From a virus (lineage: Duplodnaviria; Heunggongvirae; Uroviricota; Caudoviricetes): DNA of 7,528 bases. The notes beneath the pieces were generated by a model, which saw only the letters and a list, made by a program, of their open reading frames with translations, searched no databases and was not told where the DNA came from. Every line of letters starts with the position of its first letter. Within the stretch, counting starts at the first letter, position 1. The stretch is taken from the IMG/VR virus record IMGVR_UViG_2663762886_000006; one strand, 5' to 3'. The translations under genes and the position numbers were made by a program. Below are positions 1 to 7,528 of this stretch, piece by piece.

Positions 1-6
1 TGAGGA

Positions 7-1276
7 ATGGGTAAAGGCAGCAGTAAGGGGCATACCCCGCGCGAAGCGAAGGACAACCTGAAGTCCACGCAGCTGCTGAGTGTGATCGATGCCATCAGCG
101 AAGGGCCGGTTGAAGGTCCGGTGGATGGATTAAAAAGCGTGCTGCTGAACAGTACGCCGGTGCTGGACAGTGAGGGGAATACCAACATCTCCGGCGTCAC
201 GGTGGTGTTCCGGGCAGGTGAGCAGGAGCAGTCACCGCCGGAGGGATTTGAATCCTCCGGCTCCGAGACGGTGCTGGGTACGGAAGTGAAATATGACACG
301 CCGATCACCCGGACCATCACGTCGGCAAACATTGACCGACTGCGTTTTACCTTCGGTGTACAGGCACTGGTGGAAACCACCTCAAAGGGAGACAGGAATC
401 CGTCTGAAGTTCGCCTGCTGGTTCAGATACAGCGTAACGGTGGCTGGGTGACGGAAAAAGACATCACCATTAAGGGCAAAACCACCTCGCAGTATCTGGC
501 CTCGGTGGTGGTGGATAACCTGCCGCCGCGCCCGTTTAATATCCGGATGCGCAGAATGACGCCGGACAGCACCACAGACCAGCTGCAGAACAAAACGCTC
601 TGGTCGTCATACACCGAAATCATCGATGTGAAACAGTGCTACCCGAACACTGCACTGGTCGGCGTACAGGTGGACTCGGAGCAGTTCGGCAGCCAGCAGG
701 TGAGTCGTAATTATCATCTTCGCGGGCGCATTCTGCAGGTGCCGTCGAACTATAATCCGCAGACGCGGCAATACAGCGGTATCTGGGACGGAACGTTAAA
801 ACCGGCATACAGCAACAACATGGCCTGGTGTCTGTGGGATATGCTGACCCACCCGCGCTACGGCATGGGGAAACGTCTTGGTGCGGCGGATGTGGACAAA
901 TGGGCGCTGTATGTCATCGGCCAGTACTGCGACCAGTCAGTGCCGGACGGCTTTGGCGGCACGGAGCCGCGCATCACCTGTAATGCGTACCTGACCACAC
1001 AGCGCAAGGCGTGGGATGTGCTCAGTGATTTCTGCTCGGCGATGCGCTGTATGCCGGTATGGAACGGGCAGACGCTGACGTTCGTGCAGGACCGACCGTC
1101 GGATAAGGTGTGGACCTATAACCGCAGTAATGTGGTGATGCCGGATGATGGCGCGCCGTTCCGCTACAGCTTCAGCGCCCTGAAAGACCGCCATAATGCC
1201 GTTGAGGTGAACTGGATTGACCCGGATAACGGCTGGGAGACGGCGACAGAGCTTGTGGAGGATACGCAGGCCATTG
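7..1276 (+). CDS. J: Host specificity / tail tip protein J, N-terminal fragment (codons 1-423), 3'-truncated at the n junction at 1277
   Basis: ATG at 7 directly after a TGA at 1-3. The translation MGKGSSKGHTPREAKDNLKSTQLLSVIDAISEGP... matches the lambda gpJ N-terminus as I recall it, with only a few substitutions. The frame is open to 1276 (...EDTQAI). The listed ORF 7..1407 is an artefact that crosses the n at 1277 into fragment B out of frame. Confidence 0.9.
160..1276 (+). repeat. About 1.1-kb direct repeat of J codons 52-423 (copy 1; copy 2 is 1278-2394), ~98-99% identity
   Basis: By-eye alignment at a constant offset of +1118. About 15 substitutions spotted, several non-synonymous (GGC->AGC Gly->Ser, TAC->TGG Tyr->Trp, CCG->CAG Pro->Gln, ACC->GCC Thr->Ala). 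Confidence 0.9.
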
Positions 1277-1277
1277 N

Positions 1278-4200
1278 GTGCTGGACAGTGAGGGGAATAC
1301 CAACATCTCCGGCGTCACGGTGGTGTTCCGGGCAGGTGAGCAGGAGCAGTCACCGCCGGAGGGATTTGAATCCTCCGGCTCCGAGACGGTGCTGGGTACG
1401 GAAGTGAAATATGACACGCCGATCACCCGGACCATCACGTCGGCAAACATTGACCGACTGCGTTTTACCTTCGGTGTACAGGCACTGGTGGAAACCACCT
1501 CAAAGGGAGACAGGAATCCGTCTGAAGTTCGCCTGCTGGTTCAGATACAGCGTAACGGTGGCTGGGTGACGGAAAAAGACATCACCATTAAGGGCAAAAC
1601 CACCTCGCAGTATCTGGCCTCGGTGGTGGTGGATAACCTGCCGCCGCGCCCGTTTAATATCCGGATGCGCAGAATGACGCCGGACAGCACCACAGACCAG
1701 CTGCAGAACAAAACGCTCTGGTCGTCATACACCGAAATCATCGATGTGAAACAGTGCTACCCGAACACGGCACTGGTCGGCGTACAGGTGGATTCGGAGC
1801 AGTTCGGCAGCCAGCAGGTGAGCCGTAATTATCATCTTCGCGGGCGCATTCTGCAGGTGCCGTCGAACTATAATCCGCAGACGCGGCAATACAGCGGTAT
1901 CTGGGACGGAACGTTAAAACCGGCATACAGCAACAACATGGCCTGGTGTCTGTGGGATATGCTGACCCATCCGCGCTATGGCATGGGGAAACGTCTTGGT
2001 GCGGCAGATGTGGATAAATGGGCGCTGTATGTCATCGGCCAGTACTGTGACCAGTCGGTGCCGGACGGCTTTGGCAGCACGGAGCCGCGCATCACCTGTA
2101 ATGCCTGGCTGACCACACAGCGCAAGGCGTGGGATGTGCTCAGTGATTTCTGCTCGGCGATGCGCTGTATGCCGGTATGGAACGGGCAGACGCTGACGTT
2201 CGTGCAGGACCGACAGTCGGATAAGGTGTGGGCCTATAACCGCAGTAATGTGGTGATGCCGGATGATGGCGCGCCGTTCCGCTACAGTTTCAGCGCCCTG
2301 AAAGACCGCCATAATGCCGTTGAGGTGAACTGGATTGACCCGGATAACGGCTGGGAGACGGCGACAGAGCTTGTGGAGGATACGCAGGCCATTGTCCGTT
2401 ACGGTCGTAACGTCACGAAGATGGATGCTTTTGGCTGTACCAGCCGGGGGCAGGCACACCGCGCCGGGCTGTGGCTGATTAAAACAGAACTGCTGGAAAC
2501 GCAGACCGTGGACTTCAGCGTGGGCGCAGAAGGGCTTCGCCATGTGCCGGGCGATGTCATTGAAATCTGTGATGATGACTATGCGGGTATCAGCATCGGC
2601 GGGCGCGTGCTGGCGGTAAACAGCCAGACCCGGACGCTGACGCTCGACCGTGAAATCACGCTGCCATCCTCCGGCACCACGCTGATAAGCCTGGTTGACG
2701 GGCAGGGGAATCCGGTCAGCGTGGAGGTCCAGTCCGTCACCGACGGCGTGAAGGTAAAAGTGAGCCGTGTTCCTGACGGTGTTGCTGAATACAGCGTGTG
2801 GGGGCTGAAGCTGCCGACGTTGCGCCAGCGCCTGTTCCGCTGTGTGAGTATCCGTGAGAACGATGACGGCACGTATGCCATCACTGCCGTGCAGCATGTA
2901 CCGGAAAAAGAAGCCATCGTGGATAACGGGGCGCACTTTGACGGCGACCAGAGCGGCACGGTGAATGGTGTCACGCCGCCAGCGGTGCAGCACCTGACTG
3001 CCGAAGTCACCGCAGACAGCGGGGAATATCAGGTGCTGGCGCGCTGGGACACGCCGAAGGTGGTGAAGGGCGTGAGCTTTATGCTTCGCCTGACCGTGGC
3101 AGCGGATGACGGCAGTGAGCGGCTGGTCAGCACGGCCCGGACGACGGAAACCACTTACCGCTTCACACAACTGGCGCTGGGGAACTACAGGCTGACAGTC
3201 CGGGCAGTAAATGCGTGGGGGCAGCAGGGCGATCCGGCGTCGGTATCGTTCCGGATTGCCGCACCGGCAGCGCTGTCGCGGATTGAGCTGACGCCGGGCT
3301 ATTTTCAGATAACCGCCACGCCGCATCTTGCGGTTTATGATCCGACGGTACAGTTTGAGTTCTGGTTCTCGGAAAAGCGGATTGCGGATATCAGGCAGGT
3401 TGAAACCACAGCACGCTATCTTGGCACGGCGCTGTACTGGATAGCCGCCAGTATCAATATCAAACCGGGCCATGATTATTACTTTTATATCCGCAGTGTG
3501 AACACCGTTGGCAAATCGGCATTCGTGGAGGCTGTTGGTCAGCCGAGTGATGATGCATCCGGTTATCTGGATTTTTTCAAAGGCGAGATAGGGAAAACCC
3601 ATCTGGCTCAGGAGCTGTGGACGCAGATTGATAACGGTCAGCTTGCGCCTGACCTGGCTGAAATCAGGACGTCCATTACGGATGTCAGCAATGAAATCAC
3701 GCAGACCGTCAATAAGAAACTGGAAGACCAGAGTGCGGCAATTCAGCAGATACAGAAGGTTCAGGTTGATACAAATAATAACCTGAACAGCATGTGGGCT
3801 GTGAAGCTGCAGCAGATGCAGGACGGACGCCTTTATATCGCGGGTATTGGTGCCGGTATTGAGAACACCCCTGACGGCATGCAGAGTCAGGTGCTGCTGG
3901 CGGCGGACAGGATTGCGATGGTTAATCCTGCGAATGGCAACACAAAACCGATGTTTGTTGGTCAGGGCGATCAGATATTCATGAACGACGTGTTCCTGAA
4001 ACGCCTGACGGCCCCCACCATTACCAGCGGTGGAAATCCATCGGCATTTTCCCTGACTCCGGACGGAAAGCTGACCGCTAAAAATGCGGATATCAGTGGC
4101 AGTGTGAATGCGAACGCCGGGACGCTCAACAATGTCACGGTAAATGAAAACTGTACGATTAAGGGCATGCTGGAGGCGACTCAGGTCAGAGGTGACTTCG

Positions 4201-4622
4201 TTAAAGCTGTATCCAAATCATTTCCGAAACAGGCTGGTACGTGGGGTAACACGGAAACACCAAACGGGACGGTTACAGTCACCATAAGCGATGATCATAA
4301 CTTTGACCGCCAGATTATTATTCCGCCCATTATTTTTAACGGTATAGCGTATGACGATCCGGGGAGCGGAAATAACCCAGGAGGCACGCGATACACGGGT
4401 TATGGTTTTGAAGTTCGCAAAAACGGCGTATTAATCGCATCCAGAGAAACTAAAGGTGCCATTCCCGGTAGTTACAGTGCAGTTATTGATATGCCTAGTG
4501 GTGGTGGTAGCGTCACTCTGGAGTTTAAGATTTTCCAGAAAGGCAATCAGGGGGCAGGCAATATCACCGACTGTACGGTGATTGTGACCAAAAAAGCGGC
4601 TTCCGGCATCAGTATTCGTTGA
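1278..4622 (+). CDS. J: Host specificity / tail tip protein J, 5'-truncated (begins at the equivalent of codon 52), complete to the TGA stop; conserved N-terminal and FN3-like middle regions, non-lambda C-terminal receptor-binding region
   Basis: The 1114-codon open frame starts immediately after the n at 1277. Its first ~1.1 kb repeats 160-1276 at ~98-99% identity. The middle region matches lambda J from memory (e.g. [67 protein letters not shown]). The C-terminus (...GISIR) differs from lambda (...GISVV). The GTG at 1278 is not a real start; it aligns to Val52 of fragment A. Confidence 0.9.
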
Positions 4623-4644
4623 AATATTTATAACCCCAATAAAT

Positions 4645-4668
4645 GGCGTCAGGAATGACGCCTTTTTT
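4645..4668 (+). terminator. Rho-independent terminator downstream of J
   Basis: Perfect 7-bp stem GGCGTCA (4645-4651) / TGACGCC (4656-4662) with a GGAA loop, followed by TTTTTT (4663-4668), 23 nt after the J stop codon. Confidence 0.75.
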
Positions 4669-4681
4669 ATTGCAGAAAAGC

Positions 4682-4687
4682 GAGAGG
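4682..4687 (+). promoter_or_regulatory. Shine-Dalgarno-like GAGAGG, 5 nt upstream of the ATG at 4693
   Basis: Purine-rich GAGAGG with 5-nt spacing to the ATG; position is appropriate for the downstream gene start. Confidence 0.5.
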
Positions 4688-4692
4688 TAATT

Positions 4693-4699
4693 ATGCGTA
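4693..4699 (+). CDS. First 7 nt (ATG CGT A) of the gene downstream of J, truncated by nn at 4700-4701; possibly lom-like (outer membrane protein) by position and first two codons only
   Basis: ATG preceded by an SD and a terminator. In lambda the gene after J is lom, which I recall beginning ATGCGTAAT (Met-Arg-Asn). Only two codons are visible, so the identity is weak inference. Confidence 0.3.
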
Positions 4700-4701
4700 N
4701 N

Positions 4702-6295
4702 TCAGGTGCTGGCGCGCTGGGACACGCCGAAGGTGGTGAAGGGGGTGAGCTTTATGCTTCGCCTGACCGTGGCAGCGGATGACGGCAGTGAGCGGCTGGT
4801 CAGCACGGCCCGGACGACGGAAACCACATACCGCTTCACGCAACTGGCGCTGGGACGGTACACGCTGACAGTCCGGGCGGTAAATGCCTGGGGACAGCAG
4901 GGCGATCCGGCGTCGGTATCGTTCAGGATTGCCGCACCGGTAGCACCGTCGCGGATTGAGCTGACGCCGGGCTATTTTCAGATAACTGCCACGCCGCATC
5001 TTGCGGTTTATGATCCGACGGTACAGTTTGAGTTCTGGTTCTCGGAAAAGCGGATTGCGGATATCAGGCAGGTTGAAACCACAGCACGCTATCTTGGCAC
5101 GGCGCTGTACTGGATAGCCGCCAGTATCAATATCAAACCGGGCCATGATTATTACTTTTATATCCGCAGTGTGAACACCGTTGGCAAATCGGCATTCGTG
5201 GAGGCTGTTGGTCAGCCGAGTGATGATGCATCCGGTTATCTGGATTTTTTCAAAGGCGAGATAGGGAAAACCCATCTGGCTCAGGAGCTGTGGACGCAGA
5301 TTGATAACGGTCAGCTTGCGCCTGACCTGGCTGAAATCAGGACGTCCATTACGGATGTCAGCAATGAAATCACGCAGACCGTCAATAAGAAACTGGAAGA
5401 CCAGAGTGCGGCAATTCAGCAGATACAGAAGGTTCAGGTTGATACAAATAATAACCTGAACAGCATGTGGGCTGTGAAGCTGCAGCAGATGCAGGACGGA
5501 CGCCTTTATATCGCGGGTATTGGTGCCGGTATTGAGAACACCCCTGACGGCATGCAGAGTCAGGTGCTGCTGGCGGCGGACAGGATTGCGATGGTTAATC
5601 CTGCGAATGGCAACACAAAACCGATGTTTGTTGGTCAGGGCGATCAGATATTCATGAACGACGTGTTCCTGAAACGCCTGACGGCCCCCACCATTACCAG
5701 CGGTGGAAATCCATCGGCATTTTCCCTGACTCCGGACGGAAAGCTGACCGCTAAAAATGCGGATATCAGTGGCAGTGTGAATGCGAACGCCGGGACGCTC
5801 AACAATGTCACGGTAAATGAAAACTGTACGATTAAGGGCATGCTGGAGGCGACTCAGGTCAGAGGTGACTTCGTTAAAGCTGTATCCAAATCATTTCCGA
5901 AACAGGCTGGTACGTGGGGTAACACGGAAACACCAAACGGGACGGTTACAGTCACCATAAGCGATGATCATAACTTTGACCGCCAGATTATTATTCCGCC
6001 CATTATTTTTAACGGTATAGCGTATGACGATCCGGGGAGCGGAAATAACCCAGGAGGCACGCGATACACGGGTTATGGTTTTGAAGTTCGCAAAAACGGC
6101 GTATTAATCGCATCCAGAGAAACTAAAGGTGCCATTCCCGGTAGTTACAGTGCAGTTATTGATATGCCTAGTGGTGGTGGTAGCGTCACTCTGGAGTTTA
6201 AGATTTTCCAGAAAGGCAATCAGGGGGCAGGCAATATCACCGACTGTACGGTGATTGTGACCAAAAAAGCGGCTTCCGGCATCAGTATTCGTTGA
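4702..6295 (+). CDS. J: Host specificity protein J, C-terminal fragment (about 531 codons, codon phase starts at 4703), second copy of the J 3' end with stop
   Basis: By eye, identical to 3029-4622 from about 5000 onward; the 5' ~300 nt carries about ten substitutions relative to fragment B and instead matches fragment D. Same TGA stop context (...[10 protein letters not shown]). Confidence 0.88.
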
Positions 6296-6317
6296 AATAT
6301 TTATAACCCCAATAAAT

Positions 6318-6341
6318 GGCGTCAGGAATGACGCCTTTTTT
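6318..6341 (+). terminator. Rho-independent terminator, second copy
   Basis: Identical hairpin GGCGTCA-GGAA-TGACGCC plus TTTTTT; same offset (+1673) as the rest of the B/C repeat. Confidence 0.75.
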
Positions 6342-6354
6342 ATTGCAGAAAAGC

Positions 6355-6360
6355 GAGAGG
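6355..6360 (+). promoter_or_regulatory. Shine-Dalgarno-like GAGAGG, second copy, 5 nt upstream of the ATG at 6366
   Basis: Same sequence and spacing as 4682-4687. Confidence 0.5.
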
Positions 6361-6365
6361 TAATT

Positions 6366-6372
6366 ATGCGTA
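6366..6372 (+). CDS. First 7 nt (ATGCGTA) of the downstream gene, second copy, truncated by the N run
   Basis: Identical to 4693-4699 and cut at the same nucleotide. Confidence 0.3.
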
Positions 6373-6390
6373 NNNNNNNNNNNNNNNNNN
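6373..6390. other. Assembly gap (18 N); two further ambiguous junctions lie at 1277 (n) and 4700-4701 (nn)
   Basis: Runs of n in the sequence; the flanking sequence is non-collinear (J restarts upstream on the right-hand side of each junction). Confidence 0.95.
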
Positions 6391-7528
6391 CAGCACGGCC
6401 CGGACGACGGAAACCACATACCGCTTCACGCAACTGGCGCTGGGACGGTACACGCTGACAGTCCGGGCGGTAAATGCCTGGGGACAGCAGGGCGATCCGG
6501 CGTCGGTATCGTTCAGGATTGCCGCACCGGTAGCACCGTCGCGGATTGAGCTGACGCCGGGCTATTTTCAGATAACTGCCACGCCGCATCTTGCGGTTTA
6601 TGATCCGACGGTACAGTTTGAGTTCTGGTTCTCGGAAACGCGGATTACCGATATCAGGCAGGTTGAAACCACAGCCCGCTACCTTGGCGCGGGGCTGTAC
6701 TGGATAGCCGCCAGTATCAATATCAAACCGGGCCATGATTATTACTTTTATATCCGCAGTGTGAACACCGTTGGCAAATCGGCATTCGTGGAGGCCGTCG
6801 GTCGGGCGAGCGATGATGCGGAAGGTTACCTGGATTTTTTCAAAGGCAAGATAACCGAATCCCATCTCGGTAAAGAGCTGCTGGAAAAAGTTGATCTGAC
6901 GGAGGATAACGCCAGCAGACTGGATGAGTTTTCGAAAGAGTGGAAGGACGCTAACGATAAATGGAATGCGATGTGGGGCGTCAAAATTGAGCAGACCAAA
7001 GACGGCAAACATTATGTCGCGGGTATTGGCCTCAGCATGGAGGACACGGAGGAAGGCAAGCTGAGCCAGTTTCTGGTTGCCGCCAATCGTATCGCGTTTA
7101 TTGACCCGGCAAACGGGAATGAAACGCCGATGTTTGTGGCGCAGGGCAACCAGATATTCATGAACGACGTGTTCCTGAAGCGCCTGACAGCCCCCGCCAT
7201 TACCAGCGGTGGCAGTCCTCCGGTATTTTCCCTGACATCAGACGGAAAGCTGACCGCTAAAAATGCGGATATCAGTGGTAGTGTGAATGCGAACTCAGGA
7301 ACGCTCAACAATGTCACGATTAACCAGAACTGTACGATTAAGGGCATGCTGGAGGCGACCCAGGTCAGAGGGGATTTCGTTAAAGCTGTATCAAAAGCCT
7401 TCCCGAAAAAAGTCGGTACGTGGGGTAACACGGAAACACCAGACGGTACGGTTACAGTCACCATCAGCGATGATCATAACTTTGACCGCCAGATTATTAT
7501 TCCGCCCATTATTTTTAACGGTATAGCG
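6391..7528 (+). CDS. J: Host specificity protein J, internal/C-terminal fragment of a third, mosaic allele (codon phase starts at 6392; truncated at both ends by the N run and the window edge)
   Basis: My own translation from 6392 is open to 7528: [46 protein letters not shown]...[117 protein letters not shown]...[53 protein letters not shown]. The central part matches lambda J from memory. This frame is not in the supplied ORF track. Confidence 0.85.

Follow-up and report, generated by a model that had tools for sequence, protein, structure and literature searches.

Lambda-type J gene fragments joined at runs of N in a viral sequence record: a probable scaffold-join artefact

The window, the whole 7,528-nt stretch of viral DNA analysed here, is very probably a scaffold-join artefact; judged from its sequence and from comparison with related loci, it would be a chain of contigs carrying related lambdoid J alleles rather than a biological array. 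A preliminary description had proposed that J fragments of related lambdoid alleles were concatenated at N junctions and did not form a tandem array, and every test that we ran agrees with it. Each break in collinearity falls at a gap character, and each piece between the breaks is collinear with a single-copy reference. Pieces that overlap are not exact duplicates of one another but separate alleles or paralogues, and the occurrence of the pattern appears to follow assembly pipeline or batch, not phylogeny. The marks of a true array were not found: all the junctions are N runs, and the arrangement was recovered neither in finished genomes nor in 84 N-free contigs.

Segments, junctions and reading frames

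The window holds Ns at three places only, in runs of 1, 2 and 18, which divide it into four segments (Table 1). The preliminary description had J restarting at 1278, 4702 and 6391, at places equivalent to positions 160, 3029 and 4801, and self-BLAST reproduced all of these coordinates exactly. Each restart lies directly 3' of an N run, again as had been claimed, and the discontinuities coincide with the only Ns in the window. J 1271-1904 is the sole part of the gene that is present once in the scaffold.

Table 1. Coordinates of the segments, junctions and allele switch in the window
Feature	Position	Strand	Description
Segment A	1..1276	+	6 nt upstream and J nt 1-1270, ATG at 7
Junction 1, single N	1277..1277		J nt 1270, then back to nt 154, with a frame shift
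Segment B	1278..4699	+	J nt 154 to stop, terminator, lom ribosome-binding site, 7 nt of lom
Junction 2, NN	4700..4701		lom nt 7, then back to J nt 1905
Segment C	4702..6372	+	J nt 1905 to stop (6293-6295), terminator (6318-6335), same lom start as B
C allele make-up	D-type head 4702-4987, B-type tail 5049-6372	+	informative-site comparison
Switch stretch, 61 nt	4988..5048	+	identical in B, C and D; C goes from D-type to B-type inside it
Junction 3, 18 N	6373..6390		lom nt 7, then back to J nt 2004
Segment D	6391..7528	+	internal J fragment, J nt 2004-3225 in B numbering, more divergent allele

Taken singly, the segments are ordinary. All six gpJ domains (FNIII-A_GpJ, Phage-tail_3, Ig_J, Ig_J_second, Phage_Tail_Tip and Ig_GpJ_C) are present in B above the Pfam cut-offs, followed by the J stop codon (4620-4622), the J terminator hairpin (4645-4662) and the lom ATG (4693). 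A, C and D contain those domains that their positions predict, cut short where the segments end inside Pfam gpJ domains: A has FNIII-A_GpJ and the first 93 of the 164 profile positions of Phage-tail_3, and D, which carries an open frame as well as Pfam domains, stops at the window end within Ig_GpJ_C. The full domain series of B, its terminator and the start of an Ail/Lom-family gene downstream are all as in the lambda gpJ and lom locus and in lambdoid phages and prophages; the window differs in having four overlapping pieces instead of one gene, and we see no biological difference. Of the lambdoid tail-module order (I upstream of J, lom and stf downstream), the window covers on the downstream side the terminator and first 7 nt of lom, which appear twice; it begins 6 nt before the J ATG, leaving gene I outside.

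No reading frame is carried across any of the junctions. The change of frame reported at the A/B junction is borne out, with the J ATG at 7 in frame 1 and the codon phase of B, counted from 1278, in frame 0; the associated claim that no continuous protein spans this junction also holds, as the open reading frame 7..1407 enters B out of frame and meets a stop after 130 nt. No microhomology was found at the three window junctions. Both B and C have GTGCTGG close to their starts; we treat this as chance, because the motif occurs seven times on the plus strand of the window.

The last base of B and that of C are the same, 7 nt into lom (ATGCGTA), and the two segments do not differ in the J stop codon, the terminator hairpin or the ribosome-binding site of lom that precede it. 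This shared end lies 3 nt before the point at which the lom alleles diverge.

Related alleles and the hybrid segment C

The copies had been described as similar but not identical, and the comparisons between segments bear this out. A160-1276 matches B1-1117 at 98.6% identity, with the differences confined to 16 mismatched sites between 651 and 1170. C1-1671 matches B1752-3422 (window 3029-4699) at 99.0%, also with 16 mismatches. D stands further off, with 83-94% identity to B and C: D1-495 aligns with C100-593 (from window 4801) at 94.3% and, past an unrelated 85-nt stretch (6886-6970) that takes the place of 170 nt in the B/C allele, D581-1138 aligns with C764-1321 at 82.8%. The E-values of these self-BLAST matches are all effectively 0, far beyond chance.

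In phages and in closed E. coli genomes, each of the four segments is collinear with one J-plus-lom-start locus of about 3.58 kb (~3,580 bp); at the DNA level, annotated J genes are matched at 95-97%. A aligns without gaps to positions 3001-4276 of the reference L001 at 96.9%. B matches the intact J genes of three N-free contigs (L068, L018 and L017) at 99.2% over all 3,422 nt, again without gaps. D is 99.9% identical over its full length to the N-free contig L074 and matches closed-genome J genes in one collinear piece at no more than 99.3%.

In its composition, C is an exact hybrid of the D-type and B-type alleles. Between 4828 and 4987, C agrees with D and differs from B at every informative site (15 of 15); beyond the switch stretch all informative sites agree with B and differ from D, and the last 1,386 nt of C are identical to B. 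In the region overlapped by D, C has no private variants (0), and the combination of a D-type head with a B-type tail was found in no natural J among those examined. This bears on the earlier proposal that several lambdoid prophages with related alleles had contributed. Related alleles are indeed present, but "several" prophages may be unnecessary: as C is a hybrid of D and B, two real J genes and one hybrid path could be enough to explain the whole scaffold.

It is very unlikely, in our judgement, that C is a real recombinant of this kind, or that the array is real, with co-resident prophages having recombined within J to give partial tandem copies of the sort seen in the closed genome SCU-104 (see below). 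If it were so, C would be a fresh recombinant host-range gene, and the window would have caught ongoing J shuffling inside one cell.

Related contigs and closed genomes

We compared the window with 96 other IMG/VR loci, giving 97 sequences in all. Together these contain 24 backward restarts, and 24 of 24 are at an N; no restart was found in the N-free loci (0/84). The restart-bearing contigs are confined to a narrow range of IMG genome identifiers, accounting for 9 of 16 inside 2690316105-2700989368 and 0 of 78 outside it (Fisher p = 1e-8). This clustering points to a pipeline or batch effect, on our reading that close identifiers belong to one batch. The same false-chain pattern recurs in at least nine further IMG/VR contigs of one identifier range.

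The same scaffold joining could have drawn its alleles from more than one strain or phage, had the sample been mixed (a metagenome, or a culture with contamination). Divergence among the alleles is 1-17%, which J alleles of separate strains also show, and the window has no feature that places them on one chromosome. However, all the other restart-bearing contigs have IMG identifiers in the style of isolate genomes, the one contig from a metagenome that contains Ns (L083) shows no restart, and more than one J copy in a single genome is the norm, with closed E. coli genomes having a median of 3 J-like places and a maximum of 14. We regard a mixed sample as very unlikely.

We searched 5,426 closed E. 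coli genomes with queries of 150+150 bp from either side of each junction, the Ns having been removed. Junctions 2 and 3 were found in none of them (0/5,426). Eight apparent hits to these two proved to be J genes in normal order that lack an internal part (reference J 2301-3084). None of the closed genomes contains all the window alleles exactly; the best matches are only 98.7-99.3% identical, implying that this collection holds no near-identical finished relative. Look-ups of the exact products of the B and C open reading frames gave no match, and neither did a pattern spanning a junction in collections of viral and genome contigs, although an N in a stored sequence may escape such a pattern.

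Near junction 1, the search returned one closed genome, SCU-104 (NZ_CP053284.1), with a different restart. Like junction 1, it has a J that restarts within one prophage, running from J 1-1667 and then from J 137 onward. It differs in having no N, another breakpoint and TGCTGAA microhomology. The flanks are normal, from the tape-measure gene through the tail fibre gene; the J copies match exactly in some parts and differ by 3% in others, and RefSeq annotates them as two pseudogenes. This apparent N-free partial tandem duplication of J implies that such structures are not impossible. It speaks for a reading in which unequal recombination between J copies multiplied part of J in tandem within a single prophage, with the Ns of the window as a few uncalled bases, and the clean D/B crossover in C could likewise be a true recombinant. 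Nevertheless, we consider such a multiplication extremely improbable. All three junctions are unsequenced and have neither microhomology nor frame continuity, restarts are absent from the 84 N-free contigs and junctions 2 and 3 from the 5,426 closed genomes, and the pattern follows one batch of genome identifiers. Duplication would also have to hit the same lom base, at the ends of B and C, twice.

Origin of the scaffold and its consequences

Our preferred reading remains a scaffold-join artefact, and the data suggest how it might have arisen. The window would be a scaffold, probably an entire short one, built only from lambda-type J contigs. The source assembly would have held at least two related J genes, or three if C is real, and their likeliest carriers are lambdoid prophages residing together in one E. 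coli isolate; we infer that the alleles belong to prophages of a single isolate. The long identical stretches among J copies would have led the assembler to output overlapping, partly redundant contigs, A, B and D, with C as an apparent D-to-B hybrid path. The scaffolder would then have linked these contigs through their shared sequence and, their ends being unmergeable, placed one after another, separated by N runs of 1, 2 and 18, producing a false tandem triplication. The N lengths would accordingly be gap estimates, not counts of unread bases, although a lone N might, in principle, mark an ambiguous base in genuine sequence.

Both steps have parallels in published work. Short-read assembly of E. 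coli breaks down on homologous prophage content (PMC10925052), and scaffolders may place contigs one after another when these overlap but cannot be merged (PMC4177539). On the single-N convention of particular scaffolders, the literature yielded general statements only.

The preliminary description had also spoken of a collapsed repeat. That is half right: what can be seen is a spurious expansion, made by setting overlapping contigs of paralogous genes one behind another. We also considered a single-k de Bruijn unitig model, with an inference of k-mer size, and rejected it on the grounds that the distances from segment ends to the nearest difference are inconsistent: the last site at which A differs from B lies 106 nt before the end of A, the first difference in C comes 42 nt after its start, and near the start of B there is no difference between segments.

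Deliberate concatenation is a further possibility, in which a database or binning step placed contigs or amplicons one after another with N spacers and no evidence of linkage. The segments do stand in ascending order of J start (-6, 154, 1905, 2004), as sorting by position would give, and reference-guided tools set contigs end to end when these overlap but cannot be merged (PMC4177539). Yet fixed spacers would share one length, whereas these are 1, 2 and 18, and ascending order is not universal in related scaffolds (for example L038 and L037). Such a step strikes us as highly improbable.

False duplications at scaffold gaps are a known class of misassembly in draft genomes. The window resembles them in that near-identical sequence flanks an N gap, the copies are unmerged alleles or paralogues, and the arrangement is absent from finished genomes. 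It differs in arising from multi-copy bacterial prophage genes rather than heterozygous haplotypes, and in having three joins in a row in a scaffold made of nothing else.

The biological weight of the arrangement is nil, as these are ordinary lambda-type J genes; what it concerns is data quality. Scaffolds of this kind raise gene counts and yield fake truncated or frameshifted J "pseudogenes" and "tandem arrays". A simple filter for this artefact class is to flag any backward restart, relative to a reference or to the sequence itself, that occurs exactly at an N. Chimeric host-range alleles, of which C may be one, can enter viral collections and whatever is trained on or mines them.

Overlapping pieces of J in the window

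A megablast search of the whole window covered 5,426 closed E. coli genomes as well as 50,697 phage records. The window contains 21 Ns in only three runs, and all four of the segments that these delimit fall on a single region some 3,580 bp long, whose annotation is J (tail-tip attachment or host-specificity protein) and the start of an Ail/Lom-family gene (lom). In Pfam, segment B carries one series of gpJ domains (FNIII-A_GpJ, Phage-tail_3, Ig_J, Ig_J_second, Phage_Tail_Tip and Ig_GpJ_C). The segments are not modular duplications, their boundaries falling within domains: A ends inside Phage-tail_3 (profile position 93/164), C starts inside Ig_J (27/104), and D starts inside Ig_J (60/104) and ends inside Ig_GpJ_C (46/135). 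B and C share the stop codon of J, an identical terminator hairpin, the ribosome-binding site of lom and ATGCGTA, and terminate at the same base, the end of that motif. Because the lom alleles of four reference loci share ...ATGCGTAAA and diverge from the next base on, B and C end 3 nt short of a natural allele branch point.

Segments, N runs and other features of the window, with positions on the reference locus L001
Feature	Window	L001
J		3007-6504
lom		from 6574
Segment A	1-1276	3001-4276
J start codon (ATG)	7	
Junction 1 (N run, A/B)	1277	
Segment B	1278-4699	3160-6580
Junction 2 (N run, B/C)	4700-4701	
Segment C	4702-6372	4911-6580
Junction 3 (N run, C/D)	6373-6390	
Segment D	6391-7528	5010-6231
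D-type 85-nt stretch	6886-6970	
170-nt counterpart in B	3622-3791	
170-nt counterpart in C	5297-5466	
Antisense ORF, 562 aa (minus strand)	1914-3602	
Antisense ORF, 194 aa (minus strand)	4691-5275	
Antisense ORF, 302 aa (minus strand)	6104-7012	

Self-BLAST showed that A160-1276 corresponds to B1-1117 (98.6% identity), C to B1752-3422 (window 3029-4699; 99.0%) and D1-495 to C100-593 (from window 4801; 94.3%); past nt 495, D has an unrelated 85-nt stretch and then 82.8% identity to C across 558 nt. Each J correspondence in the preliminary description was exact. So was its frame change at the A/B junction: the codon phase of B begins at 1278, and the ORF read in the A frame (7..1407) enters B out of frame and then stops. 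Where segments overlap, their differences cluster: A and B differ only within 651-1170, B and C only in the initial 285 nt of overlap, after which the two are identical for 1,386 nt. B matches intact J genes from IMG/VR contigs free of Ns at 99.2% with zero gaps over its full 3,422 nt; D matches the N-free IMG/VR contig L074 at 99.9% over its full length, and J genes of closed genomes at up to 99.3% in a single collinear piece. Judged by these alignments, each segment is an ordinary J allele.

The D-type allele has its unrelated 85 nt in place of 170 nt of B or C, at a site flanked by the second Ig domain and the tail-tip fibre domain. The net difference of 84 nt keeps the reading frame, and the replacement is also present in the natural contig L074; mosaic J genes typically show cassette-like replacements of this kind. 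Three long antisense ORFs inside J are most likely by-products of its codon composition.

Restarts in closed genomes and related contigs

We searched the closed E. coli genomes with junction queries of 150 bp from either side, Ns removed. In nearly all genomes, just one half of each query matched. For junctions 2 and 3, both halves lay near each other in eight closed genomes. In L003 (2096-4808; E. coli SCEC020001, NZ_CP032426.1) we rejected a restart, because J keeps its normal order and lacks an internal part (reference J 2301-3084); among the matches listed for these junctions the geometry is the same as in L003, the one inspected in detail, and seven further closed genomes share it. The allele with this deletion is recurrent, and its annotation is either frameshifted J or 'phage tail tip domain-containing protein'; the prophage carrying it also has truncated terminase and L genes.

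For junction 1, one closed genome, E. coli SCU-104, does have a restart, J 1-1667 being directly joined to J 137 onward, but with no N and at another breakpoint than in the window. This N-free partial tandem duplication (L004 2881-7788; NZ_CP053284.1, about 2,540,971-2,545,878) comprises J 1-1667, J 137-633, a 100-nt deletion and J 733 onward. Between its copies there are 0 mismatches in the 497 nt of J 137-633 and 30 differing sites among the 935 of J 733-1667; TGCTGAA forms a microhomology at the junction. RefSeq annotates two J pseudogenes there and flags a neighbouring tail gene of the same prophage 'internal stop'. The duplication could stem from genuine unequal recombination or from an error of long-read assembly.

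A scan of IMG/VR with B-type and C-type 46-mers gave 96 loci, several holding multiple J fragments. When these and the window were mapped onto the reference tail region, all 24 backward restarts fell at an N, and none was found in the 84 N-free loci. Most restart junctions are tight, with unaligned sequence beside the N in a few. Restart-bearing contigs all have genome IDs within 2690316210-2700989368 (9 of 16 contigs inside this range, 0 of 78 outside; Fisher p = 1e-8), which we read as a batch or pipeline effect, taking close IDs to mark one import batch. The stored records of two restart-bearing contigs are split by holes of 6 and 11 bases, each with a further J restart, so gaps of variable length, like those of the window, may typify the pipeline.

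A 39-kb 'viral genome' contig, IMGVR_UViG_2700989365_000006 (L079 7727-14410 and L012 1-5021; contig positions about 27,000-39,001), is a more extreme example of the same artefact, with at least seven restarts from the minor tail genes through J, at single Ns and one 11-base storage hole. Other contigs with it are L038, L037, L053/L084, L056, L064 and L066.

Overall, the N-coincident restarts, the junction searches and the recurrence support the earlier reading of a scaffold-join artefact rather than a real tandem array: at each restart, overlapping pieces of different J alleles meet in a join that is unsequenced.

Segment C and the origin of the scaffold

Where B, C and D overlap, C agrees with D against B at 15 of 15 informative sites in 4828-4987 and with B against D at every informative site beyond; the switch lies within 61 nt (4988-5048) over which B, C and D are identical. 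Private differences of C are absent from its overlap with D, and the first 99 nt of C are 100% identical to the natural D-type contig L074, just upstream of the D match. A C-type head with a C/B-type tail occurred in none of 100 loci; loci matching the C/B tail at 100% have a B-type head. C is therefore either a chimeric assembly path, running from D-type into B-type where the sequence is shared, or the product of very recent recombination. That the J tandem array is real, or that C is a real recombinant, is highly improbable; the two points in favor of this reading are the SCU-104 precedent and the clean crossover in C.

Homologous prophage content is well documented to defeat short-read E. 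coli assembly (PMC10925052). Related J genes probably gave rise to overlapping contigs that resisted merging and that a scaffolder would have chained with short N runs. Read pairs running through shared sequence might have linked them, or they might have been placed by mapped position, with which the ascending starts (-6, 154, 1905, 2004) would agree; Scaffold_builder, for example, has as its default the end-to-end joining of contigs that overlap but cannot be merged (PMC4177539). How far each segment end lies from the nearest difference does not fit one k-mer size.

From these sequence comparisons we conclude that J is falsely duplicated here, that the arrangement is no real feature and that it belongs to the known misassembly class of false duplications at scaffold gaps. 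If C is chimeric, two real J genes would be enough, one B-type and one made of A, a middle represented only in B, and D. With or without a chimeric C, the number of J genes would be unremarkable, since closed E. coli genomes hold a median of 3 and a maximum of 14 J-like places. As members of the lambda gpJ family, the genes in the window are standard.
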